Of a DNA stretch of 64,000 bases, positions 3,727 through 23,730 are shown one piece after another (position 1 is the first letter of the stretch; every line of letters starts with the position of its first letter). The position numbers and the translations under genes were made by a program. The stretch is from NCBI GenBank assembly GCA_964559555.1, contig CAZLHM010000002.1:12238-76237 (forward strand), in the 5' to 3' direction. A model generated the notes under the pieces. That model worked only from the letters and a program-made list of their open reading frames with translations. It had not been told where the DNA came from and did not search any database. The stretch comes from an uncultured Candidatus Bathyarchaeia archaeon. Its GTDB lineage: Archaea; Thermoproteota; Bathyarchaeia; 40CM-2-53-6.

Positions 3727-3988
3727 AGACTATCCTGCCAAGTATAGGGTCGAAGTGCCTGATAAGAATTCGATCGAATCGACGCCCAAAATCGTGAACG
3801 CACCGAGGAAAATCAAACGATTTGCAGGAGACAGGGGCTCATCACTACTGGATCCAACGCCCCACGTCACACTCCGCCTAATCCGAACGCAGGCAAAGAC
3901 AGTCGTGTGGATTCCAGACTGATGATCGAGGATCTTCGGCAGGAACCAGCATAACCCTGAATGCGGTAGGCCCAAAACGAGTGTTCGG

Positions 3989-4924
3989 ATGTTTTTCGAA
4001 GTGCAAAGCAGTATGCTTACACATCGGAGAGGGATCGGCGTTGCCTCACGGAGATCGAGTCCCTTGTCCAGCAGCCTGATTCCGAGCTTCATTCTCACGT
4101 TTCGAGAGGCGCTGGAAGCTGCTTTAGTCATTGCCATCGCAGCATCATATCTGAGAAGAGTTGGAAAAGCGAGCCTGAACCGACACCTGTACTCGGGTGC
4201 GGTTGCTGCTGTGGGAGTCAGTGTTCTGCTGGGCGTCGTTGTATTCGGGTTCTATGGCGGGCTGTCTGGTGTCTCGGCCGAGATCTTTGAAGGGATCGCC
4301 TCTTTGATCGCTGCGCTCGTCTTGACGTACATGATCCTGTGGATGACTAGACGTGCGCGGACCATGAGGACGGAATTGGAACATAGGGTCGAGGTAGCTG
4401 TGACTACTGGGCAGATGCTCGGAATAGTTGCCCTATCTTTCGTTGCGGTGTTCAGAGAGGGTCTCGAAACTGTTCTGTTCCTCACCGCACTCGCCATCGC
4501 TGACTGGTATGGCACATTAGTTGGCGCCGCGATCGCGTCCCTGACAGTGATCATCTTGGCGGCATTTCTGATGCGTGGAATCTATCGACTCGATACTCCG
4601 AGATTCTTCCAAGTTACGAGTGTACTCCTCATAGTCTTCGCAGCTGGGTTGTCTGGTTACGCCGCACATGAGCTCTTGGAGGCCGCTGAGCACTCCGGTA
4701 TCGAACTCGGAATACTGGGACAGCACGCGTTTGACATCAATCCGCTGAAGAATCAGGATGGAACCTATCCTCTGTTGCATGAGAAAGGCGCGGTGGGATC
4801 TGTGCTCGCGGCGCTGGTCGGGTATGATGGCAACCCTGAATGGATGCGGGTCATCGTCTACGTAGGATACTGGCTCGTGCTTGGCGTGTACGTCCTATTC
4901 TCACGTCGACGCTTGAGTTCTTGA
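3989..4924 (+). CDS. FTR1/EfeU-family high-affinity iron permease
   Basis: Polytopic membrane protein with two RExxE motifs (FREALEAALV and FREGLETVLF). These are diagnostic of the FTR1/EfeU family. The true start is probably an internal Met. Confidence 0.65.
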   Translation: MFFEVQSSMLTHRRGIGVASRRSSPLSSSLIPSFILTFREALEAALVIAIAASYLRRVGKASLNRHLYSGAVAAVGVSVLLGVVVFGFYGGLSGVSAEIFEGIASLIAALVLTYMILWMTRRARTMRTELEHRVEVAVTTGQMLGIVALSFVAVFREGLETVLFLTALAIADWYGTLVGAAIASLTVIILAAFLMRGIYRLDTPRFFQVTSVLLIVFAAGLSGYAAHELLEAAEHSGIELGILGQHAFDINPLKNQDGTYPLLHEKGAVGSVLAALVGYDGNPEWMRVIVYVGYWLVLGVYVLFSRRRLSS

Positions 4925-5043
4925 TAGATCTGGAGACGAACGACCTCGCAGGAGACAGAGACCTTCCTGCGACGCCATCTATCCGCGTCGATTCGATTGA
5001 TGAAAACTTAAGTAGACTTCCCAGTCATGTGCGAAATCTCGGA

Positions 5044-5177
5044 GGGTCCGTAGCTCAGGCAGGCAGGTTGATCTGCCCTCGAAAGGTAGAGCAGCGGTCT
5101 CGCAGGAGCAAGGCTGAAGCTCTTAACCGCTGAGGGATACCCGAAGGTCGAGGGTTCAATTCCCTCCGGACCCGCCA
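5044..5177 (+). tRNA. intron-containing tRNA gene (about 131 nt before CCA; at least two introns), isotype unresolved (Lys-CUU favoured)
   Basis: Perfect 7-bp acceptor stem GGGTCCG/CGGACCC. U8 A9. D-stem GCTC...GAGC. T-arm GAGGG-TTCAATT-CCCTC. Discriminator G and encoded CCA. The acceptor and T-arm closely resemble archaeal tRNA-Lys. The D-loop is about 23 nt too long and the anticodon region about 20 nt too long. A CTCTTAA loop is present at 5120-5126. Confidence 0.6.
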
Positions 5178-5371
5178 AAAACTGACTGGAGAGATGGACG
5201 GCTACGTCAGGCAGCTGGTCAAGAAGGCCGCTGATTCTGGAGGAAGGATTCCGAAGCAGTCGAACGTGTACGAGGAGATTGTCAGGAAAGGATGGGAGGC
5301 AGTGAAGAGGCAGAACAAGAAGTAGCTGGACAGTGATTTAAGCTCAAGCAGCCAAATATGTTTCGAGTGTT

Positions 5372-6583
5372 ATGGGGACATTCTCGTCTGGGAACATTGC
5401 AATCGCATTCAACGATAATGACGGCAAGGCTGAGCGGATTCTAGCAAACGGGACGGATATCCGAACCATAGTTTTCCAACTTACCTCGATGCCTTCGATT
5501 GGTAGAGCTCCAGTTCTTCCCGATGAACTCCACCAATTAGCTAACCAAGTTTTCGACGCCATAGAGGATCTCGTTCGTCAGGGTCTAAACACATTTGTCG
5601 CGGTGTCCGCCGCCGACCGCTTTTTCGAGTCTTTCACACCGCTCTATCGCTATCTTTCGAGTTTCGGATTTCAAGGGGCAGCCTCGCATACGTGGGTGCA
5701 GCTTATTCGATGGACGCTTGAGTGGGAGAAGAGCCACTCCACCCAGATTCACAAGGGCACTCCATTCTTCTTTCTTGGAGAGAGCCTGATCTACCAGGGC
5801 GACATTGAGACTGCCTTTCTATTCATCTACAATGCCGTGGAAGAGGACAAGTCTTCGTATCAAGCTGTGGGCCAGCCAGACCGCTACAAGCAAGCTCCTG
5901 CCTACATGACTGCCACAATCGTTGACAATCCGGCGAACGTGCTCTACAAGCCTGTCGTCCGACGCATTCGAGAAGCAATCAGCAACTACGCCACATCGTT
6001 CTCTCAAGCGACCAATTCGCCTTACACTCTGGCTGACTTCCAGACCAACTTCTTGGACAAGCCCGATCTTGAGAAGCTCGTATTCTTCTTTGTCTACAAC
6101 ATGTATGTGCACATTCAGCGAAATCGCTTTCAGCAAGTATCTCAATTCTTCGACAACGATTTCACCAAGATCAAGAATCTTGATTCAATCTTCAACATGT
6201 GCCTCATAATTGAAGAGTTGCTTCAGCACAGGTTCGGTCAAGGGAAAGACAAGTACTACATCACAAATGGAATCTTGGACCTTGCGGCAAACAAGACATG
6301 GAGGACATGGGTCGCGAAAAACGAAGCATGGGAGCAGTTTCTCGGGAAGTTGGGTGGCGTCGCCATCGGGCCCGATCCAAAGACTACAGTTCCGGCCTTG
6401 CTAACTAGCAACATCACCTACGCAGGTCAGCCATTGAAGCAAGAGCTTCGCTACCTGCTCTTGGCTTGGCACTTGCGGAACTATGGCGGCCACAACATTC
6501 GAGTGCAAGACGTTCTTGTCAAGTCATACGATCAGATATTCGAGTGCTTGATCTATGCATTGTTCATCGCGGGTCAACCATGA
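5372..6583 (+). CDS. hypothetical protein (403 aa), first gene of a putative two-gene module with HEPN-like partner
   Basis: Long ORF with coding-like composition. No recognisable catalytic motif except a possible C-terminal Rx4H (HLRNYGGHNIR). Stop lies 18 nt before the next gene. Located next to the tRNA, in an island context. Confidence 0.5.
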   Translation: MGTFSSGNIAIAFNDNDGKAERILANGTDIRTIVFQLTSMPSIGRAPVLPDELHQLANQVFDAIEDLVRQGLNTFVAVSAADRFFESFTPLYRYLSSFGFQGAASHTWVQLIRWTLEWEKSHSTQIHKGTPFFFLGESLIYQGDIETAFLFIYNAVEEDKSSYQAVGQPDRYKQAPAYMTATIVDNPANVLYKPVVRRIREAISNYATSFSQATNSPYTLADFQTNFLDKPDLEKLVFFFVYNMYVHIQRNRFQQVSQFFDNDFTKIKNLDSIFNMCLIIEELLQHRFGQGKDKYYITNGILDLAANKTWRTWVAKNEAWEQFLGKLGGVAIGPDPKTTVPALLTSNITYAGQPLKQELRYLLLAWHLRNYGGHNIRVQDVLVKSYDQIFECLIYALFIAGQP

Positions 6584-6601: not shown

Positions 6602-7045
6602 TTGATAAGCAAGGAACAGTATTGGGAGATTGACAAGTTCTACAGCAAAGCAACATCGATACTTGACGAAGCCAGAGAGCATGTCAAGAAGTTCGAGTAC
6701 GACCTGTGCGTGAGGCGCTCGCAGGAAGCCTTCGAGCTGTTTCTCAAGACCATGTTCAAGTTGATCGGCGAGGAGTATCCGCAGAAGCACGAGATCAGCC
6801 AAGAGATTTACGACATGCACAGCTCTCTAAAGAAATACGACTTCTCGGCTCAGAAGGTCGCTCAGATAGTCCACAGGAATCGGACCCTGGGGGTTTGGCG
6901 AGAGAAGTCGTTCTACGGCGACGAGAAGCTTGGAGTGACCTCCATCTTCACAGAGCACGAGGCAAGATTAGCGCTGTCCTATGCAGAAGATATCTCGACA
7001 GACTGTTATGTGGTGCGAAGTCGGGTGTTCTCGGAAGTGCGGTGA
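6602..7045 (+). CDS. HEPN-like domain protein (147 aa)
   Basis: All-helical. DLCVRRSQEAFELFLKTMFKLIGEEYPQKHEISQ matches the HEPN (PF05168-like) core pattern: hydrophobic heptads followed by a conserved His. Confidence 0.4.
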   Translation: MISKEQYWEIDKFYSKATSILDEAREHVKKFEYDLCVRRSQEAFELFLKTMFKLIGEEYPQKHEISQEIYDMHSSLKKYDFSAQKVAQIVHRNRTLGVWREKSFYGDEKLGVTSIFTEHEARLALSYAEDISTDCYVVRSRVFSEVR

Positions 7046-7147
7046 AAGCTCCAACTGTACACCTGATGATATCGAGCGCCATTTCCTCATCTCACTGTGC
7101 GAACCTGTGCCTCGCGAAAAGCGGCTCGACTGAAGCTTTAAGTTACG

Positions 7148-7194
7148 ATATGATATATATCATAATATCACAAATCTGTGAGGTTGTGATATGA
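7148..7194 (+). promoter_or_regulatory. AT-rich promoter/operator: 14-bp palindrome plus 9-bp inverted repeat overlapping the abiEi start
   Basis: ATGATATATATCAT (7150-7163) is a perfect palindrome and is TATA-like. ATATCACAA (7165-7173) and TTGTGATAT (7184-7192) are perfect inverted repeats with a 10-nt spacer, ending 2 nt before the ATG at 7195. Confidence 0.4.
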
Positions 7195-7830
7195 ATGAAA
7201 ACGGACATGTTGCTCAGAAAGCTCCGCATGGAAAATAAGGAATTCGCCACGTCAGAGGAGCTGAGGGCATATTGCAAGTCATTGAAGCTGGATTACGACA
7301 TTGCGATCAGGCATCTTGTTCCGCGGGGATACCTGGTCAGAATCCTCAGGGGGATATTCTATGTCAAGTCACTTGAAGAGCTGGAGCTGGCGAGGCCCAG
7401 ATACAATCATCTCGAACTCGTCGCCAGAGGCCTTGAGCTGAAAGGTGTCAGCAACTGGTACTTTGGCCTGCACACGGCGCTCAAGCTCAACAACATGACC
7501 CACGAGGCGTTTGCAGTGGAAGACGTGATAAGCGACAAGCTGTTCCGAGCGAACCCGTTCAAGATCGCAGGGTACAAGTTCAAGTTCTCAAGGCTCTCGC
7601 CATCGCTCCTTGACTTTGGAATAAGGAAAGGGGAGAACGGCGTAAGGTATTCTGATCCAGAAAAAACGATTCTCGACTTCATCTACATATGGAGATACAA
7701 CGGCGTACCCGAAGACAAGATTGCGGCTGACGTGTCCGGTTGGGCGAAGAATGTGGCGAAGAAGATGAGGTCGTATGCGAGGAAGTATCCTAATACCGTG
7801 GCGGAGATTGCTGAGAGAGTGGCCAAATGA
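7195..7830 (+). CDS. abiEi: AbiEi-like antitoxin / transcriptional regulator (type IV TA)
   Basis: 211 aa. Sits directly upstream of an AbiEii-family gene and overlaps it by 4 nt. Size and N-terminal wHTH-like region are consistent with AbiEi. Confidence 0.55.
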   Translation: MKTDMLLRKLRMENKEFATSEELRAYCKSLKLDYDIAIRHLVPRGYLVRILRGIFYVKSLEELELARPRYNHLELVARGLELKGVSNWYFGLHTALKLNNMTHEAFAVEDVISDKLFRANPFKIAGYKFKFSRLSPSLLDFGIRKGENGVRYSDPEKTILDFIYIWRYNGVPEDKIAADVSGWAKNVAKKMRSYARKYPNTVAEIAERVAK

Positions 7831-8762
7831 GAGCCGATTTTGTAAACGAGGTCGCAAGAGTCCTAGACATCAAGAGAAGGGACTTGGTCGAGAAAGACCT
7901 CATCCTTCATCAGATGCTGACGGACCTATCACAGGAGAGTTTCTTTTCCGATAACTTCCTGTTCAAAGGTGGGACGTGCCTAATCAAGTGCTACTTCGGC
8001 TACCTGCGATTCTCGGAGGACATCGATTTCACATGGAAAGACCAGAGTGTCTTCGAAGGCAAGTCGCAGAAGCAAATCAGAAAGTACCTGTCGGATGTCA
8101 TCAACAAGACCGGAGACGTTTTCGAAGCCGTCGCCGAGAAGAGAGGCCTTGATTTCAAGTGCGTAAAGAGCAACAGGGACTATGTCGAACTCGGCGGCAA
8201 TGACAAGACCTGCACGCTCAAGATATGGTACGATTCCGAGATACTGAAAAGGCGGACGTTCCCGAAGGTGCAGATTAATTTCGTCGAGACCATGTGCTTC
8301 TCTCCGAAGAAAGGGGAGCTCAGCGGACTGCTGACAGGCAAGCACGAAGAGCTTGAAGGCCTGTTTCCCGAAGAGACAGCCGAGTATGCCAAGAGGATAG
8401 CTTTCAGCGTGTACGACATCCGCGAGACACTGTGTGAGAAGGTGCGCGCGCTTCTTACACGCGAAGGAACCAAGGCACGGGATTTCCTTGATGTCTACTT
8501 GATATGGAAACGGTTCGGCCTCAGGCCAGAAGACGAGGAGAAATGCATAATCGGCAAGATAGATTTCTCGCTGAGGCTCTATGCAAAGTACAGGCAGCAT
8601 CTGAAGCAGAAGGTCGCCTTGCTGAAGTCTGGGAAGCTGTTCGACTGGGGGACCGAGAAGGAATTGCTGCTGTCCGACATGGACGAGGGAGATTTCTACA
8701 AGTTCCTAGGCGGGTTCCAAGAGTTCCTTAAGAAAGCCGTGAAAGCTGTGGGCTACGGATAG
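7827..8762 (+). CDS. abiEii: AbiEii/AbiGii-family nucleotidyltransferase toxin (DUF1814)
   Basis: FLFKGGTCLIKCYFGYLRFSEDIDFT matches the DUF1814 signature (KGGTAL...Y...RFSEDIDF). Confidence 0.75.
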   Translation: MRADFVNEVARVLDIKRRDLVEKDLILHQMLTDLSQESFFSDNFLFKGGTCLIKCYFGYLRFSEDIDFTWKDQSVFEGKSQKQIRKYLSDVINKTGDVFEAVAEKRGLDFKCVKSNRDYVELGGNDKTCTLKIWYDSEILKRRTFPKVQINFVETMCFSPKKGELSGLLTGKHEELEGLFPEETAEYAKRIAFSVYDIRETLCEKVRALLTREGTKARDFLDVYLIWKRFGLRPEDEEKCIIGKIDFSLRLYAKYRQHLKQKVALLKSGKLFDWGTEKELLLSDMDEGDFYKFLGGFQEFLKKAVKAVGYG

Positions 8763-8793
8763 CGCATTGCCGCTTCAAACACAATACTCATGA

Positions 8794-9354
8794 TTGCAGA
8801 ATATTGAACATATGTTCAAAAAATTAGAATTCATCACTCCGACGCTCATGTCAGTCTTGGAGCTCTTCCTGTCTGATCCCATGCGAGAGCACCATCAGAG
8901 GGAGGTGGCAAGAAGCGCCAAGGTGAGCGTGGGCTCTGCGAACAGGATACTCAAGCTACTGGCTGATCTGGATATGCTTGCCGGACAAAGGAGGGGCAGG
9001 ATGGTGTTCTACAAGCTGAACGCTGGGGACCCGGTCGTCAGGCAGTTCAAGGCGCTGCTGAATGTCTACTCTTTGAAGCCCTTGCTCCAAGCGGCAAGGC
9101 ACCATTCCAGAAGGATACTCCTGTTCGGAAGGTCAGCCCAAGGATCCGATGTGAAGGAAAGCGACATAGACCTCTTCGTTCTCACTTCGGACAAGGGGCC
9201 AGTCAGGAGCGAGATCAGCGGATCCAACAGGAAAAGCGAGAGGAAGATTGCTCCTGTAATCGTTGACGCGAACGAATTTGTCAGGCTCAAGAGAAACGAC
9301 AGGGCTCTCTATGAGAACATCGAAAGGGGGATCACACTGTGGCAGGCAGAATGA
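8794..9354 (+). CDS. winged-HTH fused to minimal nucleotidyltransferase (MNT) domain
   Basis: LLFGRSAQGSDVKESDIDLFVL = GSx(n)DxD Pol-beta-type nucleotidyltransferase motif. N-terminal wHTH (RILKLLADLDMLAGQRRGRMVFYKL). Confidence 0.7.
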   Translation: MQNIEHMFKKLEFITPTLMSVLELFLSDPMREHHQREVARSAKVSVGSANRILKLLADLDMLAGQRRGRMVFYKLNAGDPVVRQFKALLNVYSLKPLLQAARHHSRRILLFGRSAQGSDVKESDIDLFVLTSDKGPVRSEISGSNRKSERKIAPVIVDANEFVRLKRNDRALYENIERGITLWQAE

Positions 9355-9524
9355 GCTCGGAGCTTGCCAAGCTGCTGGAGCAAAGAAAGCTGTTCAGATC
9401 CAGAATCTCTCGGGAGATGATTCAGAAGGAAACCAAAGCGGCTGAAAAGGACTTGCAGGATGCGCGCTGCCCCTTGTTCACTGATTGGCAGAGAACTCCA
9501 TCCTGCGCAGCTCTTGTGATATGA
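9339..9524 (+). pseudogene. possible truncated HEPN-like remnant downstream of the MNT gene
   Basis: The first 45 aa are helical (MAGRMSSELAKLLEQRKLFRSRISREMIQKETKAAEKDLQDA). The ORF then runs antisense into the histidine-kinase 3' end and is only 61 aa. It lies where an MNT cognate HEPN would be expected. Confidence 0.2.
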
Positions 9525-12500
9525 TGGGAATTCTCACGGTGAACGTCGATCCCTCTCCGAATGTACTTTTCGCATGAATCGAGCCACCGTGCGCTTCCAC
9601 TATGCGCTTGCTGATCGCGAGTCCGAATCCCATTCCTTTCGCCTTTGTTGTGAATAGCGGTGTCCAAAGCTTCGCTAGGGTCTCATTCGTCATGCCGATT
9701 CCCGTGTCAGCGAACGATATCTCTACTTGTCCGTCTGCCTCTCTGCTTGATATCGCGAGCGATCCGCCTTCGGGCATTGCTTCTATGGCATTCTTGATGA
9801 TATTGAGAAGCGCTCTTCGGATCTTCTCTCGATCAGCCACCAGTTTGGGGGAAGGCTTGCTCGAGTCATCTATCTGCACGTTCGATGGAACTTGGACGAG
9901 AGGTAGTGATTGCTGTACCATTGACTTGGGACTGGTCAGGGCAAGATGCAGGTGTATCTCTGCAGAGTATTCCAGGAGGTCGGTGATGACCTTATCAGAA
10001 TACTCGATGCAGTCGTCAATGACCCTTAGAGATTCCGTGATCTGTTCACCGTTCCTTGCGCCCAGTCTCGTCTTGAGTAGGTACGCTGCGCTCGCGATCC
10101 CTTGAAGTGGATTCCTGAGGTCGTGACCCACCATGGCTGCTGTTGTGCCGATCGCGGCGAGGCGTTCAGACTTGAGGAGTGCCTCTTCCATACGTTTGCG
10201 GTCGGTAATGTCCATGACAATTCCTCTCAGGCCGACAGCCTTGCCTTCGCGTAGAATGGGTGCAGCGTGCACGATTACTGGGAATGTGCTGCCGTTCTTT
10301 CTCTTGATCGTGTATTCGCTGCCGCTCACCTTCTCTCCCCTTAACAGCTTACGAATATTCTCTCTGGCCCTTTCATGATGTTCCGATGGAAACATCATGA
10401 ATGCGTTCGATCCCTCGTGGAGTTCCTTCTCAGTATAGCCGGTAGCCTCAGAGGCGATGCGGTTCACGAAGGCGATATTGCCCTCGGTATCAATCTCAAA
10501 CACGATCTGCGGCAGAAGGTCAGCCAATTCCCTGAATCTTCGTTCGCTCTCTGATAGTTCAAGGGTTCTTTCTGCAACGACTTGCTCCAAGTTTGATGAG
10601 TAGGCTCTCAGTTCCTGAGCGTGACGTTGTCTCTGCTCAAGGAGTCGCGCATTCTCGACAGCAATGGCAGCGTGATTGGCAAACAGACTCAACAACTCCA
10701 AGTCTGATTGCGTGAAGTGCTGTGACTCAGAGTAGTCGAGTACGTGGATCACTCCGGTGACTTGGCTCTGCCAGATCATGGGCACTGTGAGGACGGCTCG
10801 GAAGGGGTGCTCTTCCTCGTAGGCGATGGCTCGACCGGACCAAGTGCGATAGTCGTCGATGATCAATGGTTCTCCGGCTTCGGCCACAATCCCTGCTGCC
10901 CCCTCTCCGTACTTCAGCACAGTTCCAATGTAGTCACGAGGGGTCATGTAGCTGACAACGCAGCGAACCTCGCGTTTCTTGGGATCGCATAGATACATCC
11001 CCCCACTAGGCGCGTCAAGCAACCGAGCTGCTCGTTCGACGATCGCTTGAAGCAATGACGGTAGATCGTGTCGGCGCGTGATCTCGAGGACGGTCGCTTG
11101 AAGAGCGCTCAACTCTTCAGCTCGTGAGTGCAGTCTGTCACTCATGAGCTTACGCTCTAGGGCGTTTCCGAGAATTCCAGATGAAAACCGGAGAAGCGAG
11201 TAGTCATCCTCACTCCACCTTCTGGCCCCAACAATGTTGTCAAAACCTATGAATCCGGCCAGCTCTCCACCTACCCCGACGGGTAGTACCAGGAGCGATT
11301 TGACGTCTTGGCTCTCCAGAACACTTTTCTCAGCTGCTGCCTCGAGAGGTAGCTTTGAGACATCCTCGACGTGTATGACTTCACCCTTGCGAAGTCTTGT
11401 CATCCACCACGAGAACGTCTCACAGGGTAGATTCTGAAGATTCTCGATCTGCGGACTCACTCCGTCCGCACACCACTCATGCGTGTTGCTCATCTTGTTT
11501 CCGTCTTCGGAAAGCATGAAGACGTAGACGCGACCAGCTCCACTAAGCCTGCCCATGTCACGCAAAGATTCCTTGATGGACTCATCGATGTCGGATGCGC
11601 CCACAAATCTGGACGAGATCGTGGCAATGGTCCTTTCAAAATCGTACCTGCATGCGAGAGAGTGCTCAACCCGCTTACGTTCAGTGATATCTAGAATGAT
11701 CGCTTGGAAGCCCACGGTCTTGCCCTCCACTCTGAGTCTTGTCGGCTTTGAATAGAGGTGAAGAACACGCCCGTCTTTGTGTATCGCTCTGAACTCCAGA
11801 TCTCCGGTCTCTCTTGTTGAAGAAGCAGCTCGAAGGAAGAGTTCCATCACTCTTGTCGCATCCTCAGTGTGCAGGAAGCTCTTGAACTGGAGACCCAACA
11901 GTTCGAGAACTGAATACCCCAGCATCTTGGCGAATGCTTGATTCACATAGGTGAACTTGCCTTCCGTGTCTGTAAGCGCGATCGGTGCAGCGGTCTCTTG
12001 GACTAGGCTCCGAAACCTCTCTTCGCGTTCTCGTAAAACCCGATCAGTCTGCTTACGCCTAGTCATGTCACGCGCAACATAGAAGCTTCCAATCTGCCGT
12101 CTGCCCTCATGGAGGAGTCCGCCGCGAATCTCAAGGTTGATTCTGCCTCCAGTCTTGGTCTGGATCTCCAACTCAAGTCGCTTCACGCGCTGCCCACGAG
12201 AGATCCTCTGCAACTCGTTCTCGACAGTGGTTCGAGCTTTGGGAACCACGAAGTCCACTGGATTGCGGCCGATCAGGTCCTTGATGGTATATCCCGTCGC
12301 CTTGCATGTTGCCGGATTCACGGCGACTATTCTGTTTGAGCGGTCGAGAGCGAAGAAGAGGTCGCTGGCTTGTTCGAAATATGTGCGAAGGCGCCGATCA
12401 CTTCGCACTTGCTCCACGAGTTTCTTCCGGGTTCGATCAGAGCTCACCTGACGACGCTCGCGCGGCTTTGGAATGCTTCGTACGTGCTGTGATGAATCGG

Positions 12501-12690
12501 GGCTTCTGCGACGTTCCAATAGAGCCTCGACAGTAGCCCTCTTTCCGCTCGGAGTCCTAGTCATTTCTAGTTCCCGAGCAAGGCCTGATGCCAACCAATC
12601 TGCGAGTACAGCTCTGATCCCGCCCAGTACGGCTGCGCAAGGAAAAGATATGGGTCTGCTGTCACTCGCAGGTTTTCGGTTGAGAGACAA
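9478..12690 (-). CDS. multi-PAS/GAF sensor histidine kinase (1070 aa)
   Basis: Several PAS-like repeats. HisKA H-box VGHDLRNPL. C-terminal HATPase_c (DTGIGM...GMGFGLAISKRIVEAHGG). Confidence 0.8.
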   Translation of the reverse strand: MSLNRKPASDSRPISFPCAAVLGGIRAVLADWLASGLARELEMTRTPSGKRATVEALLERRRSPDSSQHVRSIPKPRERRQVSSDRTRKKLVEQVRSDRRLRTYFEQASDLFFALDRSNRIVAVNPATCKATGYTIKDLIGRNPVDFVVPKARTTVENELQRISRGQRVKRLELEIQTKTGGRINLEIRGGLLHEGRRQIGSFYVARDMTRRKQTDRVLREREERFRSLVQETAAPIALTDTEGKFTYVNQAFAKMLGYSVLELLGLQFKSFLHTEDATRVMELFLRAASSTRETGDLEFRAIHKDGRVLHLYSKPTRLRVEGKTVGFQAIILDITERKRVEHSLACRYDFERTIATISSRFVGASDIDESIKESLRDMGRLSGAGRVYVFMLSEDGNKMSNTHEWCADGVSPQIENLQNLPCETFSWWMTRLRKGEVIHVEDVSKLPLEAAAEKSVLESQDVKSLLVLPVGVGGELAGFIGFDNIVGARRWSEDDYSLLRFSSGILGNALERKLMSDRLHSRAEELSALQATVLEITRRHDLPSLLQAIVERAARLLDAPSGGMYLCDPKKREVRCVVSYMTPRDYIGTVLKYGEGAAGIVAEAGEPLIIDDYRTWSGRAIAYEEEHPFRAVLTVPMIWQSQVTGVIHVLDYSESQHFTQSDLELLSLFANHAAIAVENARLLEQRQRHAQELRAYSSNLEQVVAERTLELSESERRFRELADLLPQIVFEIDTEGNIAFVNRIASEATGYTEKELHEGSNAFMMFPSEHHERARENIRKLLRGEKVSGSEYTIKRKNGSTFPVIVHAAPILREGKAVGLRGIVMDITDRKRMEEALLKSERLAAIGTTAAMVGHDLRNPLQGIASAAYLLKTRLGARNGEQITESLRVIDDCIEYSDKVITDLLEYSAEIHLHLALTSPKSMVQQSLPLVQVPSNVQIDDSSKPSPKLVADREKIRRALLNIIKNAIEAMPEGGSLAISSREADGQVEISFADTGIGMTNETLAKLWTPLFTTKAKGMGFGLAISKRIVEAHGGSIHAKSTFGEGSTFTVRIPIISQELRRMEFSANQ

Positions 12691-16238: not shown

Positions 16239-17111
16239 TCAACCACCGCGAGCTCTCTCAAGCGCTCGGGCGAAAGCAGACCTGACAAGCGCTTTCACCG
16301 CGCTCTTTCTGTATTCTGCTGTGGCTCTCACATCAGTTACGGGGACGGCTTCGTCCGAAGCCATTGAAGCCACCGAGTCAAGAAGGGCTGCACTAGGTTC
16401 CTTTCCACTCAACATCTTCTCAGCTTGAAGCGCTCTCATGGGCATGGGAGCGACGCTGCCGAGAGCTATTCGCCCTTCAGAGATCTTGGATCCCGAGATC
16501 TTTAGCAGGACAGCCGCAGAAGCAACGGATATGTCCTCTCCGTTCGTTCGACCGAGTTTCTCGAATGATGAGCCGCCCTCTTGAGGGCGGAATGCAACTT
16601 CCTTCAGCACCTCAGCCTTTTCTAGCGCTGTCTTTCCCGGACCTAGAAAGAAATCCTTCAAGGGGATTGTCCTGCCCGTTCCTTGCCGGATTGTCTCAAC
16701 TGAAGCGTTCAACACGAGAAGAGGGGGAGCTGAGTCGGCCGCAGGACTTGCGTTGCATAGGTTTCCTCCGATTGTAGCTCGATTCCTTATCTGGACTGAT
16801 CCGATCTGTGAGAGAGCCTCATGGAGGCAAGGTGCTCTTGTGCAAACCAACTCTGATCTCTGTGCGTCGATGATCTTGGTCAGAGCCCCGATTCTAACTA
16901 ATCCGTCCTTGATCGTTACGTAGCTCAGTTCCTTTCCAAGGTTTCTCAAGGAGACGACGTTCGCAGGTCTGAATCCCTTCAGTCTCGCTGCTGGAATGAA
17001 ATCCGTGCCCCCCGCGATAAGACTGGGCGAATCAAGTCTTCCTAGTAGGTTCAGCAATTCTGGAATCGTGTCTGGAGCGTAGTAGTCGAACGCTGGTACG
17101 GTGGCTCTCAT
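16239..17111 (-). CDS. FAD-binding medium subunit of molybdenum hydroxylase (CoxM/XdhB-like)
   Basis: LIAGGTDFIP motif. About 290 aa. Confidence 0.8.
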   Translation of the reverse strand: MRATVPAFDYYAPDTIPELLNLLGRLDSPSLIAGGTDFIPAARLKGFRPANVVSLRNLGKELSYVTIKDGLVRIGALTKIIDAQRSELVCTRAPCLHEALSQIGSVQIRNRATIGGNLCNASPAADSAPPLLVLNASVETIRQGTGRTIPLKDFFLGPGKTALEKAEVLKEVAFRPQEGGSSFEKLGRTNGEDISVASAAVLLKISGSKISEGRIALGSVAPMPMRALQAEKMLSGKEPSAALLDSVASMASDEAVPVTDVRATAEYRKSAVKALVRSAFARALERARGG

Positions 17112-17217
17112 GCAGCGTGAGGGGTTTTGTGGGCGCTATTAAGCCTTTGATTCGATGCGACCAGTGATCAGGTACTGTAAATTCTCTTATAGTCGATGAC
17201 GACGAAGTGGACGCGCC

Positions 17218-19503
17218 TTGTCTCGAGTTGAAGCAGTCCAGAAAGTCACAGGTCGACTCACATTCACGGCAGACATGCAACTTTCAGGTATGCTTTATGC
17301 GGCAATTCTTCGAAGCGACAGACCCCACGCGAGAGTTAGGTCGATTGATGCTTCAGACGCTCTCAACCTTACCGGAGTCAAGAACGTAGTTACCTACGAA
17401 GATGCGCCGAACACACGATACAGTCCAATTTTCAACGCGCCATACCCCAAAGCAGACATGGTACCGAGAGACAAGTCGATAATGCGAAGAGAGGTTTGCT
17501 ATGTGGGCGAACCCGTGGCGGCGGTCGCAGCTACAAGCGTGGAGACGGCAGAGGAAGCCGTTAGCAAGATATGCGTCGAGTATGAGGATCTGCCCTACGT
17601 ATTGGATCCTCTTAAGGCCATGGAACCAGGAGCTCCAAAGGTCAGGACTGAACTGCACTACAATGTCGCAGAGGCATGGGGAGCCAAAGACGGAAACCCG
17701 ATGACAATCAGCACCGGGGACATCGAAAAAGGCTTCAAGATGGCCGATGAGGTCTTCGTAGACGAATACCAGACGCAGAGACAGAACCAAGTGCCGTTCG
17801 AACCGCACTGCTGCGTGTCATACTGGGACGAGAAAGGAAAGCTGAACGTGTGGTCTTCAACACAGAGCATTTTCCTTCTTAGAGAGAGGCTCTCAGAAGC
17901 GCTCGCCGTTCCCGTATCGAAGATAAACGTGCACAACTCCTACCTAGGCGGCTCTTTCGGCTCCAAACTGCAGATGAGCGAGGTTGAGCCAATCTGCGCT
18001 CTCCTGTCTAGGAAATCCAAGAAGGCGGTCAAGCTTGTTCTGAAGAGGGACGAGGTATTCGTCACCACGTCCAGACACGATGTCCGCATGACGCTCAGGA
18101 CTGGAGTGAAGAGGGACGGAACCATAACAGGTAGGCACTGCAAGTACGTGCTGAACACTGGCGCATATGCGACTCATGGTCCAAGCGTGGCAATTGTCGG
18201 CGGCCTCTACTTTGACTCAGCCTACAATGCTCCAAACCGTTTGTTCGAGGCCTATGCTGTCTACACCAATACATATTCCCCAGGGGCAATGAGAGGCTAT
18301 GGCGGCATCCAAGCTAGTTTCGGCATCGAGAGTCAGATGGACGATATCGCACATAAGATGGGATTCGACCCGATCGAGTTCAGGTTGAAGAACTCATTCA
18401 AGCTGGGTGACGTGAACCCGCGGACAGGCTACGTGGTGAGATCTTGGGGCCTGGAGGAGGCAGCAAGAAGCGCGGCGAAACGTTTCGGTTGGGACAAGCC
18501 ACCGCAGCAATCCTCTGACCCCAATAGGAGAAGAGGCAGAGGTATGGCCTTCCAAACCATCCGAGGTTCCGGCACAGGCGCCAAGACCACAACCGAACGA
18601 ATAATTGAGCACGGCGGAGCCACAGTCAAGTTCAACGAAGATGGAAGATTCACGGTCGTGACCGCAGCCATCGATATGGGCTGTGGTCAGCACACGGTGT
18701 ACAGGAACATTGCTGCAGACACGCTGGGTGTAGACGCGGACATGATAGATGTCCAGACAGGCGACACTGACACCACCGTATTCGAGGGGCCTATCCATGC
18801 AAGCCGCGGTACATACGTCGTCGGAAGCATAGTGAAAGCCGTCTGTGAGAGGATCAAGGCGCAGGTTCTCGAAGCCGCCTCCACGATGGTTGAAAGGAAC
18901 CCTCAGACCTTGGAGATCTCAGGCAAAGAGATCCGGTCAAGAGAGGATCCCAAGCTGAAGATGACGCTCTCAGAATTGGGTCTCTATGTCAGATTCCACT
19001 TGAACAAGAGCTTGGTCGTGTCCCTAGCGGACGAACCTCCCGACAATCCGCCTCCGTTCGGAGCGCATTTCGCTGAGGTTGAAGTTGATGTTCTTACGGG
19101 GCGAGTGTTTGTGACGAGATATGTGGCGGCACAAGATGTGGGCAAGATCATCTACGGGCCAGGAGCCAAAGGTCAGATTTACGGCGCGATTGCCCAAGGC
19201 ATTGGACTCACTCTCATGGAGGAAGTCAAGTTCGACTCTAGGGGGCAGGTAGTCAATTCGAACTTGACGGACTACAAGATCCCATCCATCGCAGATATGC
19301 CCGAGGCGGAAGCCATACTAGTCGAGACCACTGAACCAAGCGCGGTGGGAGCCAAGAGCGTAAGCGAAGCGTCACTCCATCCAGTTGCTCCAGTGATCGC
19401 CAACGCGCTGAAGGACGCTTTGGGAATAAGATTCAGGTCGCTGCCAATTACGCCAGAGAAGATCTTGAAAGCGATGCATCAAGGCGTGAAGAACTACATT
19501 TGA
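17218..19503 (+). CDS. molybdopterin-binding large subunit, xanthine dehydrogenase/aldehyde oxidase family
   Basis: 761 aa. a/b-hammerhead and MoCo-binding layout. No CODH-type AYRCSFR loop seen. Divergent from the small and medium subunit genes. Confidence 0.8.
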   Translation: MSRVEAVQKVTGRLTFTADMQLSGMLYAAILRSDRPHARVRSIDASDALNLTGVKNVVTYEDAPNTRYSPIFNAPYPKADMVPRDKSIMRREVCYVGEPVAAVAATSVETAEEAVSKICVEYEDLPYVLDPLKAMEPGAPKVRTELHYNVAEAWGAKDGNPMTISTGDIEKGFKMADEVFVDEYQTQRQNQVPFEPHCCVSYWDEKGKLNVWSSTQSIFLLRERLSEALAVPVSKINVHNSYLGGSFGSKLQMSEVEPICALLSRKSKKAVKLVLKRDEVFVTTSRHDVRMTLRTGVKRDGTITGRHCKYVLNTGAYATHGPSVAIVGGLYFDSAYNAPNRLFEAYAVYTNTYSPGAMRGYGGIQASFGIESQMDDIAHKMGFDPIEFRLKNSFKLGDVNPRTGYVVRSWGLEEAARSAAKRFGWDKPPQQSSDPNRRRGRGMAFQTIRGSGTGAKTTTERIIEHGGATVKFNEDGRFTVVTAAIDMGCGQHTVYRNIAADTLGVDADMIDVQTGDTDTTVFEGPIHASRGTYVVGSIVKAVCERIKAQVLEAASTMVERNPQTLEISGKEIRSREDPKLKMTLSELGLYVRFHLNKSLVVSLADEPPDNPPPFGAHFAEVEVDVLTGRVFVTRYVAAQDVGKIIYGPGAKGQIYGAIAQGIGLTLMEEVKFDSRGQVVNSNLTDYKIPSIADMPEAEAILVETTEPSAVGAKSVSEASLHPVAPVIANALKDALGIRFRSLPITPEKILKAMHQGVKNYI

Positions 19504-19681: not shown

Positions 19682-22384
19682 TTGGAGAAGAGCACCGTCA
19701 AACCCGATCAGGTGGGTCTGCGGTTATCATTCAAGTACGGCACCGCACAGTTCCAAGGTATCGAACGTCGTGAGGTAAGAAAGGAACCATTCCCCCGAAC
19801 TCGAAAGATGCGAGACCTCTACTTCGAGACGAAGTCCTCCGCCAGCGTTGAATTCCCTTATTGGTACACGAGACGATGGAACCAACTCGAAGGGGAGATC
19901 CCGATCATACGAAGGGCAGAAGCTCTTCGACACGCCTTCTCGCATCTGACCCCTACGATATTTCCCGGCGAACTCTTGGTCATGGGAAGGACATTGTACC
20001 TGAGGGGATCCTACCCGATGCCATGGGTCTCCCAGAGTTTCATTCTGGAGACCGGGAAACGATACGAGGAAGCGAAGCAACGCGGACTTGCTGGCGAAGA
20101 TGTGGTGAAGGTGGCGAAAGGAGGAGGCAACGTCACCCAAGCCATAGGCAACGTGATCTCAGTTGCGGGAAAATTCGGATTGAGGAAGGAAGAGTACCCC
20201 ATACTCAAAGAGGTTACGACCTCATGGGACGGGAAGTCAGTCGAGGACCTCTCGCTGAAGTACGAAAGGATGGTGCCAAACTACGAGACCAAGGAAGCCA
20301 TCATGCGCAGTCTCGTGTGCATGTATGATTCCGGTTATACTCTACCGCAAGGGAGAGAGGTCATCAGCTACTATCATCCGCTCCAATCAGGCATCGATGG
20401 CATGATCCAGTACTGCCATGGACAGATCGAACGGGTGGCGGGGGATCCTGGTACCGATGGAGTCAACGGCATGGATAGGCTGTACTTCTACAGGGCGGCG
20501 GCTACTGTCCTTGAAGGGATCAAGACATGGGTTCTCAACTACGCGAGTGAGGCAAGGCGACTAGCGAGCACAGAGACGGACCTCGACCAGAAGAACGAGT
20601 ATGAGGAGATCGCAAGTACACTCGAGTGGGTCTCGTCAAAGCAGCCTAGGATTTTCCGTGAGGCCCTCCAGCTTGCCTGGGTCTTCCATCTCGCAGTTCT
20701 CGCGGAAGACAACTTCTCAGGCCTTGCTCCAGGACGGCTGGGGCAGATTCTGTATCCTTGGTGGAAGCAGGACATGGAGAGTGGGTTACTCGACAGAAAA
20801 AAGACTCTGGAACTGCTCGAATGTATTCGAATGAAATTCACTGAGATTGATCTGTTCGGTCCAAAGATGGTGATAGAGGGAATCCAGTCAGGGAGCACAT
20901 TCAACAACGTAAGCCTAGGCGGATTAACGAGAGAAGGCGAGAGTGCAGCAAACGAACTTGAGATGCTTATGATCGAAGCTGGAATGACTTGTGAGACTCC
21001 TCAGCCAACCATGACGATACTCTATGACGAAAGGCTTCCAGAGGAGTATCTGCTCAAGGCTGTCGAGTGCAACAAGACAGGCACTGGGTACCCAGCATGG
21101 GTCAATAACAACGTAGCCATGGAATTCCTCCTCAAGAACTATGGCCCCGAAGGCATGACACTGGACGATGCAAGAGCTGTGGCAATAGGTGGCTGTCTAC
21201 AGACTGCAGCCTGCGCATGGGCTGAGCTCAAGCTGAACGGAAAGAAGTACGTGATCCCACGTGGAGGAGCAGCTCCAGCCACAGACGTAGGAGTCCACTT
21301 TCTCAACCTTCCGAAAGTGCTAGAGCTAGTGCTCTTTGACGGACTGGACCAGAGAACGGGTCAAAGAGTGCTGCCGTCTCACGGATCAAAGCTCGAGACC
21401 TACGGCGAGCTCTGGGAGACCTACAAGAAATACTTCAGAGAGGTCGTAGGCATTCTCATTCGATGCAACAACGTTCAACACGATGTCTGGAGGAAGGTCA
21501 CGCCCTCGGTCGTGAACTCCATGCTGAAGCCCGACTGTCTCGAGAAGGGAATGCAGATCGGAATGATGGGTTCTCGATACAATGCGAACTTCAGCGTCAA
21601 CATCTGTGGTGGCATCAACCTAGTGAATTCTCTCGCATCGCTGAAGTTCAATGTGTACGACAACAAGAAGATCACGCTTGAAGAGCTGAAGGAAGCACTT
21701 CGACACAACTTCGGGTTCAAGAAAGCTGAAGAGGTCGGCTCCTACTCGCTGATGGACCAAGTCAGACTCTCCCACAGTTGGGACAGGGTTCACCACCTGT
21801 GCATGAACGCACCGAAATATGGAAACGATGAGCCATATGCCGATGACATCTTGAGGGAATGGGAGGAATTCTACTGCTCTGTTGTGCGCGAATACAAGTC
21901 ACTATTCGCCAAGCCATTGTACGCGCTTCAGCTATCAGTATCCACTCATGGGCCCATGGGTGCGGTGAACATAGCGACTCCTGATGGGCGTCTGCATGGC
22001 ACTACGTTGGCGGACGCATCGGTTTCCGCCTATCCTGGCACAGACCTGAATGGCCCATATGCCTTGTTCAATTCCGCGACTTGCTTCGATCACTCCAACT
22101 CCCAGTGCACACAGATGAACCTCAAGATACACCCATCAGCGATCAAGGGAAGGGAAGGCAGCAGGAAACTCCTGGAACTGATTCGCTCCTATATGCGGAA
22201 GGGTGGCTTCCACATTCAGTTCAACATAGTCGACTCCAACATGCTAAGAGAGGCTCAAGCGCATCCTGAGAAGTATCGGGACCTGCTCGTCAGAGTTGCA
22301 GGTTTCACTCACTACTGGGTGGAGCTTCCGAAGCCAATACAAGATGAGATCATCGCCAGAACCGAGTACGAGGAGCTGACCTAG
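19682..22384 (+). CDS. glycyl radical enzyme catalytic subunit, HPAD-like architecture (variant Cys loop GCLQ)
   Basis: 900 aa. C-terminal glycyl-radical motif LVRVAGFTHY (RVxG[FY]). Cys loop VAIGGCLQTAAC near residue 505. Followed by a small Cys-rich subunit and an activase. Confidence 0.75.
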   Translation: MEKSTVKPDQVGLRLSFKYGTAQFQGIERREVRKEPFPRTRKMRDLYFETKSSASVEFPYWYTRRWNQLEGEIPIIRRAEALRHAFSHLTPTIFPGELLVMGRTLYLRGSYPMPWVSQSFILETGKRYEEAKQRGLAGEDVVKVAKGGGNVTQAIGNVISVAGKFGLRKEEYPILKEVTTSWDGKSVEDLSLKYERMVPNYETKEAIMRSLVCMYDSGYTLPQGREVISYYHPLQSGIDGMIQYCHGQIERVAGDPGTDGVNGMDRLYFYRAAATVLEGIKTWVLNYASEARRLASTETDLDQKNEYEEIASTLEWVSSKQPRIFREALQLAWVFHLAVLAEDNFSGLAPGRLGQILYPWWKQDMESGLLDRKKTLELLECIRMKFTEIDLFGPKMVIEGIQSGSTFNNVSLGGLTREGESAANELEMLMIEAGMTCETPQPTMTILYDERLPEEYLLKAVECNKTGTGYPAWVNNNVAMEFLLKNYGPEGMTLDDARAVAIGGCLQTAACAWAELKLNGKKYVIPRGGAAPATDVGVHFLNLPKVLELVLFDGLDQRTGQRVLPSHGSKLETYGELWETYKKYFREVVGILIRCNNVQHDVWRKVTPSVVNSMLKPDCLEKGMQIGMMGSRYNANFSVNICGGINLVNSLASLKFNVYDNKKITLEELKEALRHNFGFKKAEEVGSYSLMDQVRLSHSWDRVHHLCMNAPKYGNDEPYADDILREWEEFYCSVVREYKSLFAKPLYALQLSVSTHGPMGAVNIATPDGRLHGTTLADASVSAYPGTDLNGPYALFNSATCFDHSNSQCTQMNLKIHPSAIKGREGSRKLLELIRSYMRKGGFHIQFNIVDSNMLREAQAHPEKYRDLLVRVAGFTHYWVELPKPIQDEIIARTEYEELT

Positions 22385-22669
22385 ATGCTTGCGCAGGTCA
22401 TCGTTAGGCGATGTGCCGACTGCGAGCACTTCATTCCCGTCGACGTTTTCAAGGGACTCTGCCAAGTGTCAAAGAAGACAGTACTGACTGATGATCCGCC
22501 CTGCAAGGACTGCACACCTGCCAAGAAGTGCAAGTTCTGCAAGCACTACTCGCCAAGAGACGAGCATCTCGGCATGTGCAAGGCGAAGGAGATCACCTAC
22601 CCGGAACTAGCGACCAAAACCTGCGAAATGTTCGGGTGGAGTTCTGACCTACCAACCGGCCGGAACTAA
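22385..22669 (+). CDS. Cys-rich small subunit of glycyl radical enzyme (HpdC/BssC-like, putative Fe-S)
   Basis: 94 aa with 9 Cys and 2 His in CxxC-type spacings (CADCEH, CKDCTPAKKCKFCKH). Start codon overlaps the large-subunit stop. Confidence 0.55.
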   Translation: MLAQVIVRRCADCEHFIPVDVFKGLCQVSKKTVLTDDPPCKDCTPAKKCKFCKHYSPRDEHLGMCKAKEITYPELATKTCEMFGWSSDLPTGRN

Positions 22670-22758
22670 CCCATGCCTTGCTATCCGTCTCCTCTTCGAC
22701 AAAGTACGATCGTGTATATCAACACAATTCCATCGCCTGAACGGAGGGCAGACTTCAT

Positions 22759-23730
22759 GTGCAAAGCGTAGCAATGTCGTCGACGCAGAAACCAGAATCC
22801 TTGAAGGGACTGATATTTGACGTGCAGGGCTTCTCGGTTCACGATGGGCCGGGTTGCAGGACTCTAGTTTTCATGAAGGGATGCCCTCTAACCTGCAAAT
22901 GGTGCTGCAACCCCGAGGGCCAAGAACAGAAACTGCAACTGATGTACAGTCAGAGAAGATGCAGAAAGGAGACGTACGGCTGCGTAACGGCCTGTCCCGA
23001 GATGGCGATATCAGTCAATGAGGCTGGCGAATATCCCACCTTTGATCGGTCAAAATGCACGAGATGTCGGCACTTTGGCTGTGCCAATGGCTGCTATAAC
23101 GGAGCGCTCAGGGTAGTCGGGCGCTACGTCACTGTTCAAGAACTGATGAATACTGTTCGACGTGATCGAGCTTATTGGGGTAGCGGAGGTGGGGTGACAT
23201 TGGGCGGAGGGGAACCCCTCGCGCAAGCAGAGTTCACTCTCGCACTTCTGAAAGAGCTTCACGAGGCATACGTTCACACCGCGATTGAAACGTGTGCTCA
23301 GGTTCCTTGGAACAACCTGATGCGAGCGCTCGACTACTTGGACTGGATCTTCGTGGACATAAAACACATGGACACTGACAGGCACAGGCAAGAAACAGGC
23401 GTCGGGAATGAACTGATCTTGGAGAACATCAAGCGTATTTCCTTGTCGGAGAAATCACCGCGAATGATCCCTAGGATGCCCATAGTGCCAGGATTCAACG
23501 ATTCCGACAGCAATGTTCTGGCCACAGCAGCCTTTCTCAACAAGATAGGGAAGAATGAAGTGAACCTTCTCCCGTTCCATCGCCTAGGTGTGTCCAAGTA
23601 CGAGCAGCTTGGTCTGGACTATGCCTATAAGGACACCAACCCACCGACTGCCGAGAAGATCGACCACATCGCAGGGCTCTTCGAGAAGAGGGGTATCAAA
23701 TGCTACGCTGGAAGCGATACCCCGTTCTAG
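22759..23730 (+). CDS. glycyl-radical enzyme activating enzyme (radical SAM, with extra ferredoxin-like clusters)
   Basis: FDVQGFSVHDGPGCRTLVFMKGCPLTCKWCCNPE is the classic GRE-AE N-terminus including CxxxCxxC. Extra Cys cluster CRKETYGCVTACPE...CTRCRHFGCANGC. 323 aa. Confidence 0.85.
   Translation: MQSVAMSSTQKPESLKGLIFDVQGFSVHDGPGCRTLVFMKGCPLTCKWCCNPEGQEQKLQLMYSQRRCRKETYGCVTACPEMAISVNEAGEYPTFDRSKCTRCRHFGCANGCYNGALRVVGRYVTVQELMNTVRRDRAYWGSGGGVTLGGGEPLAQAEFTLALLKELHEAYVHTAIETCAQVPWNNLMRALDYLDWIFVDIKHMDTDRHRQETGVGNELILENIKRISLSEKSPRMIPRMPIVPGFNDSDSNVLATAAFLNKIGKNEVNLLPFHRLGVSKYEQLGLDYAYKDTNPPTAEKIDHIAGLFEKRGIKCYAGSDTPF

Follow-up and report, generated by a model that had tools for sequence, protein, structure and literature searches.

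Multi-intron and split tRNA genes in archaea

That a tRNA gene may contain as many as three introns is established for archaea, above all for Thermoproteales but also for Thaumarchaeota and further groups (PMC8450103, PMC4033280). In Thermoproteales such as Pyrobaculum calidifontis and Thermofilum pendens, single genes carry three short introns, one at the canonical position 37/38 and two at non-canonical positions. Pairing between exon and intron yields bulge-helix-bulge (BHB) and relaxed BHB motifs, and introns that lie close together need to be removed sequentially (PMC8450103, PMC4033280, PMC4090602). Position 30/31 is among the listed non-canonical intron positions (PMC4090602). At this same point the tRNA-Lys(CUU) genes of Nanoarchaeum equitans, Staphylothermus marinus and Staphylothermus hellenicus are split, with a canonical hBHBh' motif (PMC3218864). 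Familiar hosts of the canonical 37/38 intron are Haloferax volcanii tRNA-Trp and Methanocaldococcus tRNA-Met.

The gene described here lies on the forward strand of a 64-kb window (the whole stretch of DNA that was analyzed) from a Bathyarchaeia archaeon of about 52% GC, the relatives of which come from sediment, soil and peat metagenomes. It resembles the Thermoproteales genes in having three short introns, one canonical and two non-canonical, and in its combination of BHB and relaxed BHB motifs with closely set introns. The host, in contrast, is not a hyperthermophilic crenarchaeon, and the three introns have no obvious mutual similarity by eye, so that nothing in this gene hints at transposition of introns such as has been reported in Thermoproteales. 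The sequence-only reading, made from the letters of this stretch, had pointed to Thermoproteales, Korarchaeota and some uncultured lineages as typical hosts; genome matches and synteny place the gene in Bathyarchaeia, and the first two names do not apply.

With the split tRNA-Lys(CUU) genes of N. equitans and Staphylothermus the gene shares the isoacceptor, the 30/31 point and the hBHBh' motif, which here has a 4/4 central helix, an exon helix of 4 bp and an intron helix of 2-4 bp. The Bathyarchaeia parts, however, are contiguous and are separated by a cis intron of 21-38 nt instead of lying at separate loci. All four exons are colinear within 134 nt, and neither the separate loci nor the permuted order of split and permuted tRNA genes was found. 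Like the canonical 37/38 introns, the third intron uses positions 32-35 for its central helix and the anticodon stem as its outer helix. It differs from them in being only 13 nt long, with a 1-bp inner helix and a 4-nt loop, and in having its outer helix interrupted by another intron.

A literature search found no paper on multi-intron tRNAs in Bathyarchaeia, and the D-loop intron site after position 17 is absent from the review list of intron positions. The gene is a further case of the already known three-intron tRNAs and, as far as its splicing can be predicted, of ordered splicing in archaea. With it, the range of three-intron tRNA genes comes to include Bathyarchaeia.

A tRNA-Lys(CUU) gene with three introns

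The gene comprises 134 nt including the encoded CCA (131 nt without it). Its parts follow each other in the order GGGTCCG-TA-GCTC...GAGC...GAGGG-TTCAATT-CCCTC-CGGACCC-G-CCA. The acceptor stem (GGGTCCG/CGGACCC), U8-A9, the D-stem (GCTC/GAGC), the T-arm (GAGGG-TTCAATT-CCCTC), the discriminator G and CCA are all intact. The exons and introns are listed in Table 1; local numbers used below count within the gene, such that local 54 and local 76 correspond to window positions 5097 and 5119.

Table 1. Positions of the tRNA-Lys(CUU) gene, its exons and introns and the upstream box in the window.
Feature	Position	Strand	Basis
Promoter-like box (BRE/TATA-like), GAAAACTTAAGTAGACTT	5002..5019	+	Position and conservation
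Whole gene (pre-tRNA body, 134 nt)	5044..5177	+	Rfam RF00005 and 78 homologous copies, all with CCA
Exon 1: acceptor 5' strand, U8 A9, D-stem 5' strand, D-loop A14 G15 G16 C17	5044..5060	+	Join set by one-intron orthologs with D-loop AGTCAGGTA
Intron 1, 23 nt, AGGCAGGTTGATCTGCCCTCGAA, D-loop after position 17	5061..5083	+	Missing in 14 orthologous versions; relaxed BHB
Exon 2: A17a G18 G19 U20 A21, D-stem 3' strand GAGC, A26, positions 27-30 (GCGG)	5084..5097	+	Invariant in 52/52 versions, most of the stretch being imposed by the search pattern
Intron 2, 21 nt, TCTCGCAGGAGCAAGGCTGAA, anticodon stem 5' strand, 30/31	5098..5118	+	Strict hBHBh'
Exon 3: G31 and loop positions 32-37 (C U CUU A), with the anticodon CUU	5119..5125	+	Invariant in 52/52 versions; free of search-pattern constraint
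Intron 3, 13 nt, ACCGCTGAGGGAT, canonical 37/38	5126..5138	+	Missing in one-intron orthologs; BHB
Exon 4: A38, anticodon-stem 3' strand CCCGA, variable loop AGGTC, T-arm, acceptor 3' strand, G73, CCA	5139..5177	+	Invariant in all versions

Joining the four exons gives an RNA of 77 nt including CCA. As spliced in silico, this 77-mer was called by ARAGORN as tRNA-Lys(ctt) with a normal cloverleaf, having stems of 7, 4, 5 and 5 bp, a 9-nt D-loop (AGGCAGGUA in the window), a 7-nt anticodon loop and a 5-nt variable loop. Removal of the inserts thus leaves a complete cloverleaf of normal length. The mature anticodon stem is GCGGG/CCCGA, the loop CUCUUAA and the variable loop AGGUC. The loop reads C32 U33 C34 U35 U36 A37 A38, with CUU at 34-36, U33 and a purine at 37 on a class-I body, as is proper to tRNA-Lys(CUU). 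The inserts, of 13-23 nt, gave no match to an Rfam intron model in the window at E<=1 and do not have the character of self-splicing group I or II introns, which run to hundreds of nt and have a ribozyme core.

Much of this had been anticipated. The sequence-only reading had proposed a tRNA gene of about 131 nt with the same intact parts, in agreement with the length found and with the match to RF00005, and with about 23, 20 and 13 extra nt it came essentially to the actual intron lengths. Its D-loop insert stands where it was put. The insert of about 20 nt, assigned loosely to the anticodon region, belongs to the anticodon stem, on its 5' strand, and the 13 nt placed before the variable loop occupy the canonical 37/38 site. 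At least two and possibly three introns had been suspected, including non-canonical positions: there are three, two of which are non-canonical. The suggestion that CTCTTAA would be a Lys(CUU) loop agrees with the ARAGORN call on the spliced 77-mer. No clean exon assembly had been possible by eye; the 77-nt cloverleaf is such an assembly, and the joins at introns 1 and 3 are seen in orthologs that are free of these introns.

With a probability of about 0.92, then, 5044-5177 is a real, functional-looking tRNA-Lys(CUU) gene of a Bathyarchaeia archaeon that is cut by three protein-spliced introns of the BHB type. The gene, its exon junctions, the motifs, the conservation and the synteny are described below as observed, and from them we infer transcription, the enzymes involved, the order of splicing and the production of a mature tRNA.

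Relatives with one and three introns

A pattern scan of 185,579 species genomes identified 11 loci, of which 10 are in MAGs labeled Bathyarchaeia or Bathyarchaeota and one is in an "uncultured archaeon". A second scan, of JGI metagenomes, added 71 loci to give 82. Every genome match was to a Bathyarchaeia or an unclassified archaeal MAG. Including the window, 78 full-length copies in 52 distinct versions were obtained, and CCA is encoded in 78/78.

The versions fall into two layouts. The three-intron layout of the window was found in 38/52, with inserts of 19-24 nt in the D-loop, 20-21 nt at 30/31 and 13 nt at 37/38. The remaining 14/52 have the 30/31 insert only (31-38 nt), with exons that match the three-intron genes exactly. 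These one-intron versions have an ordinary 9-nt D-loop and an uninterrupted CTCTTAACCCGAAGGTC; they read CTCTTAA-CCCGA-AGGTC, so that the loop runs straight into the 3' stem and the variable loop. Because 14 versions at the syntenic locus are free of introns 1 and 3 and have identical exons, these two junctions are fixed independently of folding, the exon joins predicted for the window being those present in the orthologs.

In the alignment of the 38 three-intron sequences, all variable columns fall inside the proposed introns, except for U16G in the D-loop of the window. The invariance extends to parts on which the search pattern placed no constraint, namely GCTCTTA (invariant in 52/52 versions) and the stretch from local 96 to the start of the T-stem. 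The 30/31 intron is common to both clades and has conserved ends, UCU...AGGCUGA(A/G). In the one-intron family the junction keeps its conserved intron ends and shows a 4/4/4 motif in 12/14 versions.

In the one-intron clade, for example at L016, L019 and L031 (38 nt), the longer 30/31 intron carries GGCUGA(A/G) or GCUGAAAG in two or three internal copies (UCUAGGCUGAAAGCUGAAAGGCUGAGGACUAGGCUGAA), which points to growth by small internal duplications. A function as C/D guide is unlikely, since the longer intron has no box C motif.

At two loci the 5' pattern picked up a different gene, a tRNA-Lys(UUU)-like gene (GCGGC-CTTTTAA...GCCGC) of another organism: L020 at about 5400-5490 (-) and L053 at about 5367-5460 (+). 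This gene has a single insert of about 13 nt at or beside 37/38, of the size and placement of intron 3. On contig CALIUM010000006.1 a complete intronless tRNA-Lys(CUU) was found (L011, 3643-3716 (-), 73.6 bits). The same contig carries an isolated exact copy of the 3' part of this tRNA, from about position 30 to CCA (L008, 7221-7265 (+)), with unrelated sequence on its 5' side. The copy begins at the 30/31 region, where tRNA-Lys(CUU) is interrupted in other lineages; Rfam made no call on it, and the L008 and L011 loci do not overlap. It may represent an integration (att) scar or else a 3' half. A search of 11 related loci (139 kb) for other tRNA genes, as a gauge of how rich in introns the lineage is overall, returned the Lys gene only.

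Junctions and BHB motifs

All junction pairs in the gene were scanned for a BHB motif, defined as an exon-side helix, a 4-bp central helix, 3-nt bulges cut after the second base and an intron-side helix. For the three junctions, fixed beforehand, the number of shuffled sequences with a motif of at least the observed quality was counted over 200,000 shuffles. The frequencies were 0.0002 for intron 1, 5e-05 for intron 2 and 0.0001 for intron 3, each <=0.02%. Together with the recurrence of the gene in 78 copies, these values exclude chance. A search for BHB motifs at each junction, as recommended with the sequence-only reading, thus found one at all three: strict at intron 2, formed once intron 2 is out at intron 3, and relaxed at intron 1.

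The junction of intron 2 is the only strict hBHBh' among the 4,525 pairs scanned in the gene. The cuts fall after local 54 and before local 76 (5097/5098 and 5118/5119). The central helix is 4/4, the intron helix has 2 bp, and the 4-bp exon helix is formed by A21-G24 with the loop bases C32-U35. The pairs of this motif are 96-100% maintained. Removal of intron 2 gives GCGG|G followed by the loop CUCUUAA. This junction was placed by cloverleaf geometry, the strict BHB and the pattern of variation; among the 52 versions, length variants were found at that junction, and no ortholog with the same exons that is free of intron 2.

The partner of GCGGG is CCCGA at local 97-101, so that a further 13 nt (local 83-95) must come out. 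After removal of intron 2, the 4-bp anticodon stem serves as the exon helix of intron 3, and C32-U35 pair with AGGG of the intron to form a 4/4 central helix (CUCU/AGGG). The motif has the bulges UAA and AUA and a 4-nt loop closed by an inner helix of 1 bp. All pairs of this motif are maintained in 38/38 sequences, with U:A/U:G changes at two intron positions. In one relative (L042) the first base of intron 3 is changed (A83G) with A38 constant, which favors a cut at 37/38 over 38/39.

The ends of intron 1 are less sharply defined by sequence, as AGG is repeated at both and the junction could move up to 3 nt in the 3' direction. The four possible junctions yield one and the same product, and of these just one, cut after C17 (5060/5061 and 5083/5084), shows BHB geometry. 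There the central helix pairs U12-G15 with C35-G38 (12-15/35-38). It is 3/4 in the window, owing to a C13-C37 mismatch present in 32/38 sequences, and 4/4 in the six relatives in which C37 is G. The intron-side helix has 4-6 bp, the bulges are (G/U)CA and AAA, and the exon-side helix is the single pair C11:G42. The pair A22:U31 is replaced by G:C, a compensatory change, in seven sequences. Across the intron-1 and intron-2 motifs 94.6% of pairs are maintained, several changes being G:C to G:U; as the relatives are close, double-sided covariation is limited to one pair and the other changes are one-sided and compatible. By this model, the intron 1 motif is a relaxed BHB that would need an endonuclease of broad specificity.

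As intron 1 has the weakest BHB of the three (3/4 central helix in most sequences, 1-bp exon-side helix) and a junction ambiguous by up to 3 nt by sequence alone, it might be supposed that only the two inserts in the anticodon arm are introns, and that the 23-nt insert stays in the tRNA as an enlarged D-loop or an extra hairpin. The orthologs with identical exons nevertheless have a normal 9-nt D-loop, and symmetric cleavage at the 3-nt bulges reproduces this loop exactly. Moreover, the insert varies in sequence and in length (19-24 nt), yet its hairpin, including the compensatory pair, and its pairing to exon bases 12-15 are kept. Contacts of G18 and G19 with the T-loop are part of established tRNA architecture, and a D-loop of 32 nt would break them. 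Retention of the insert is therefore considered very unlikely, and removal of all three inserts is the preferred reading.

Several other junctions were tried and rejected. Considered in the window alone, the best-looking cut in the D-loop is after local 18 and before local 40, giving a 21-nt intron with a 5-bp inner helix and an 11-nt D-loop. In this arrangement U16 cannot pair with C34 in the relatives, and the product conflicts with the 9-nt D-loop of the intron-free orthologs. A junction leaving an 8-nt D-loop (17/42) is likewise inconsistent with the orthologs. With an anticodon stem AGCGG/CCGCU and a 13-nt insert in the variable region, there would be neither a position 26 nor a BHB.

Minimum-energy folding of the precursor did not display the BHB motifs, and thermodynamics alone neither finds nor supports them. 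By the nearest-neighbor model, the BHB conformers are 7-20 kcal/mol less stable than the minimum-energy folds: about 9-11 kcal/mol when the motif of intron 1 or of intron 2 is forced, about 20 kcal/mol when both are, and about 7 kcal/mol for the intron-3 motif in the intermediate.

Predicted splicing pathway

Transcription would start from the GAAAACTTAAGTAGACTT box about 30 nt upstream and be followed by trimming of the ends. In each BHB motif the 3-nt bulges are the predicted sites of EndA cleavage, after which the exons would be joined by an RtcB-type ligase. Introns 1 and 2 have their motifs in different parts of the precursor (local 11-42 and 45-80), where the two could coexist; in these motifs, pairing between exon and intron would replace the D-stem (in both) and the anticodon stem. 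The endonuclease would have to capture or stabilize these BHB conformers.

The outer helix of intron 3 is the anticodon stem, which becomes continuous only after intron 2 is out. Because intron 3 needs both this stem and the loop bases 32-35, which are held by the intron-2 motif, it would be cut after intron 2. Splicing is therefore modeled as ordered, with intron 2 removed before intron 3. Such a dependence on order has been documented for close-set archaeal introns (PMC8450103). A canonical intron that depends on the prior removal of a stem intron would make ordered splicing open to a direct test.

Cleavage of relaxed motifs depends on endonucleases of the (alpha-beta)2 or epsilon2 type (PMC7714728, PMC5829648). 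The (alpha-beta)2 type occurs chiefly in the TACK superphylum, including Bathyarchaeota (PMC7714728). Among the 30 window ORFs scanned against Pfam, neither a splicing endonuclease nor an RtcB-type ligase was found.

Recognition by tRNA gene finders and alternative assemblies

In its unspliced form the gene matches the full RF00005 model at 5044-5174 (+) with 40.4 bits (E=4.3e-05; the gathering score is 29). It is the sole Rfam match in the window, even at E<=1. Two large inserts appear in the alignment, one of 30 nt in the D-loop and one of 37 nt in the anticodon region. Rfam bits drop stepwise with the number of introns, from 70.8-73.6 for intronless Lys genes through 51.8-52.7 for one-intron genes to 40.4-42.3 for three-intron genes. 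Default ARAGORN reported no tRNA anywhere in the window; with introns allowed (-i), it reported Arg(cct) with a 46-nt intron.

These results bear on what had been said of detection from the sequence alone. Such genes were expected to be missed often by gene finders, and default ARAGORN does overlook this one. A covariance-model search, in which the absence of a tRNA, a single long intron or a pseudogene would have told against the proposal, found the tRNA with introns 2 and 3 lumped in one insert; the comparative data speak against both a single long intron and a pseudogene. ARAGORN with introns allowed, the other check proposed, did call a tRNA, with an identity and an intron that are rejected below.

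The blank result of default ARAGORN, the score of 40.4 bits against about 71-74 for intronless Lys genes and a predicted minimum-energy fold that is not a cloverleaf would all suit a decayed pseudogene with random insertions that makes no functional tRNA. Decay is difficult to reconcile with exons that are identical in 52 versions, across clades in which the flanking proteins are only about 50% identical, and with changes that are confined to the inserts. Each insert, moreover, has at its borders a BHB motif of a quality well beyond chance, and a conserved promoter-like box, the encoded CCA and the syntenic position have been kept. We regard a pseudogene as extremely unlikely and retain the reading of a functional-looking gene.

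The programs also suggest other assemblies of the anticodon arm. Since Rfam puts 37 nt in one insert after GCGGUCUCG, the gene might contain one long intron in the anticodon region and have the anticodon CGC; the ARAGORN output corresponds to a tRNA-Arg(CCT) with a 46-nt intron. The stretch CUCGCAGG, however, differs between relatives (CUGCCAGG, CUCGUGGG, CACGCGGG), and the one-intron family has other sequence in its place. GCTCTTA, by contrast, is the same throughout. A check by hand found no BHB at the junctions of the CGC reading. A G3:U70 pair is the established rule for Ala identity, with which G3:C70 of this gene is incompatible. The Arg(CCT) model has a 3-bp D-stem and a 17-nt variable region and throws away the conserved GGTAGAGC. 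A reading as Ala(CGC) with a 20-nt canonical intron was discarded for having no BHB and no G3:U70 and for falling in a variable region, and Arg(CCT) as implausible and ruled out on comparative grounds. That the gene has either identity is hardly credible, and tRNA-Lys(CUU) is kept.

As default ARAGORN overlooks the gene, annotations of Bathyarchaeia may appear to be without tRNA-Lys(CUU), which would distort inferences about genome completeness and codon usage. A 97-aa ORF at 4840-5133 (+) spans the promoter region together with the greater part of the tRNA gene. This ORF is spurious almost beyond doubt, and where the tRNA goes unnoticed it might wrongly be annotated as a protein.

The promoter-like box lies 25-42 nt 5' of the first tRNA base. 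It is nearly identical and at an equal distance in the six three-intron relatives inspected (L001, L002, L003, L005, L009 and L010). From its position and conservation, the box is probably an archaeal promoter.

Gene neighborhood and intron gain or loss

Upstream of the tRNA are genes that Pfam identifies as RibK, RibL (cytidylyltransferase), diphthine synthase and an M29 peptidase. At the three-intron loci these four are found in synteny, their sequences being 70-79% identical in nucleotides and about 75% in amino acids. The one-intron genes, too, are flanked by RibK, RibL and diphthine synthase, with an amino-acid identity of about 50%. The shared neighbors indicate that the one-intron and three-intron genes are orthologs in two Bathyarchaeia clades. 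The tRNA exons have stayed 100% identical while the neighboring proteins diverged to about 50%. Introns 1 and 3 have, by this sequence comparison, evidently been gained or lost between the two clades.

One- and three-intron orthologs with identical exons and conserved neighbors offer a clean natural comparison for the gain and loss of tRNA introns. That the split tRNA-Lys(CUU) genes of two other archaeal phyla have the same 30/31 site is relevant to the dispute about the age, ancient or recent, of split tRNAs and introns. A broader scheme can be advanced tentatively, although we think it unlikely to hold as a whole. In it, the 30/31 interruption would be either one ancient inherited feature, kept as a cis intron in Bathyarchaeia and as split genes in Desulfurococcales and Nanoarchaeota, or a specific recurrent target of a mobile intron; introns 1 and 3 would be recent gains or losses on an unchanged tRNA body, and the canonical intron would be obligatorily gated by removal of the 30/31 intron.

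In the interval 3770-5040, a gene for an FTR1-family iron permease (3989-4924), with tblastn matches in 16 related loci, separates the M29 peptidase from the tRNA. In L012 the sequence matching the window stops about 175 nt before the tRNA, and the permease therefore looks like an insertion or deletion difference.

Synteny with the relatives stops just past the tRNA, where 5191-5958 is common to L012 only; the tRNA thus marks the edge of a variable region. Repeats of the tRNA 3' end that would represent an integration scar were not found in the window, and a search of viral contigs with the tRNA's 3' half gave no matches. Just 3' of the tRNA is an ORF of 403 aa (5372-6583 (+)) with no Pfam match at E<=0.001, part of which is kept at 84% amino-acid identity in one related locus only, L012. 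It is followed by a cluster of the toxin-antitoxin or defense type at 6602-9354, consisting of HEPN (6602-7045), a weak AbiEi match (7195-7830), an AbiEii nucleotidyltransferase toxin (7827-8762) and a Pol-beta/MNT-type nucleotidyltransferase (8794-9354).

The scanned part of the window beyond this cluster (9478-41938) is metabolic and regulatory in content. It contains a PAS/GAF histidine kinase of 1,070 aa (9478-12690), four amidohydrolase-family genes, subunits of the xanthine-dehydrogenase family (16239-19503), an aldehyde:ferredoxin oxidoreductase (27355-29133) and a creatininase-family gene. A glycyl-radical enzyme and a radical-SAM ORF, probably its activase, are found at 19682-23730.
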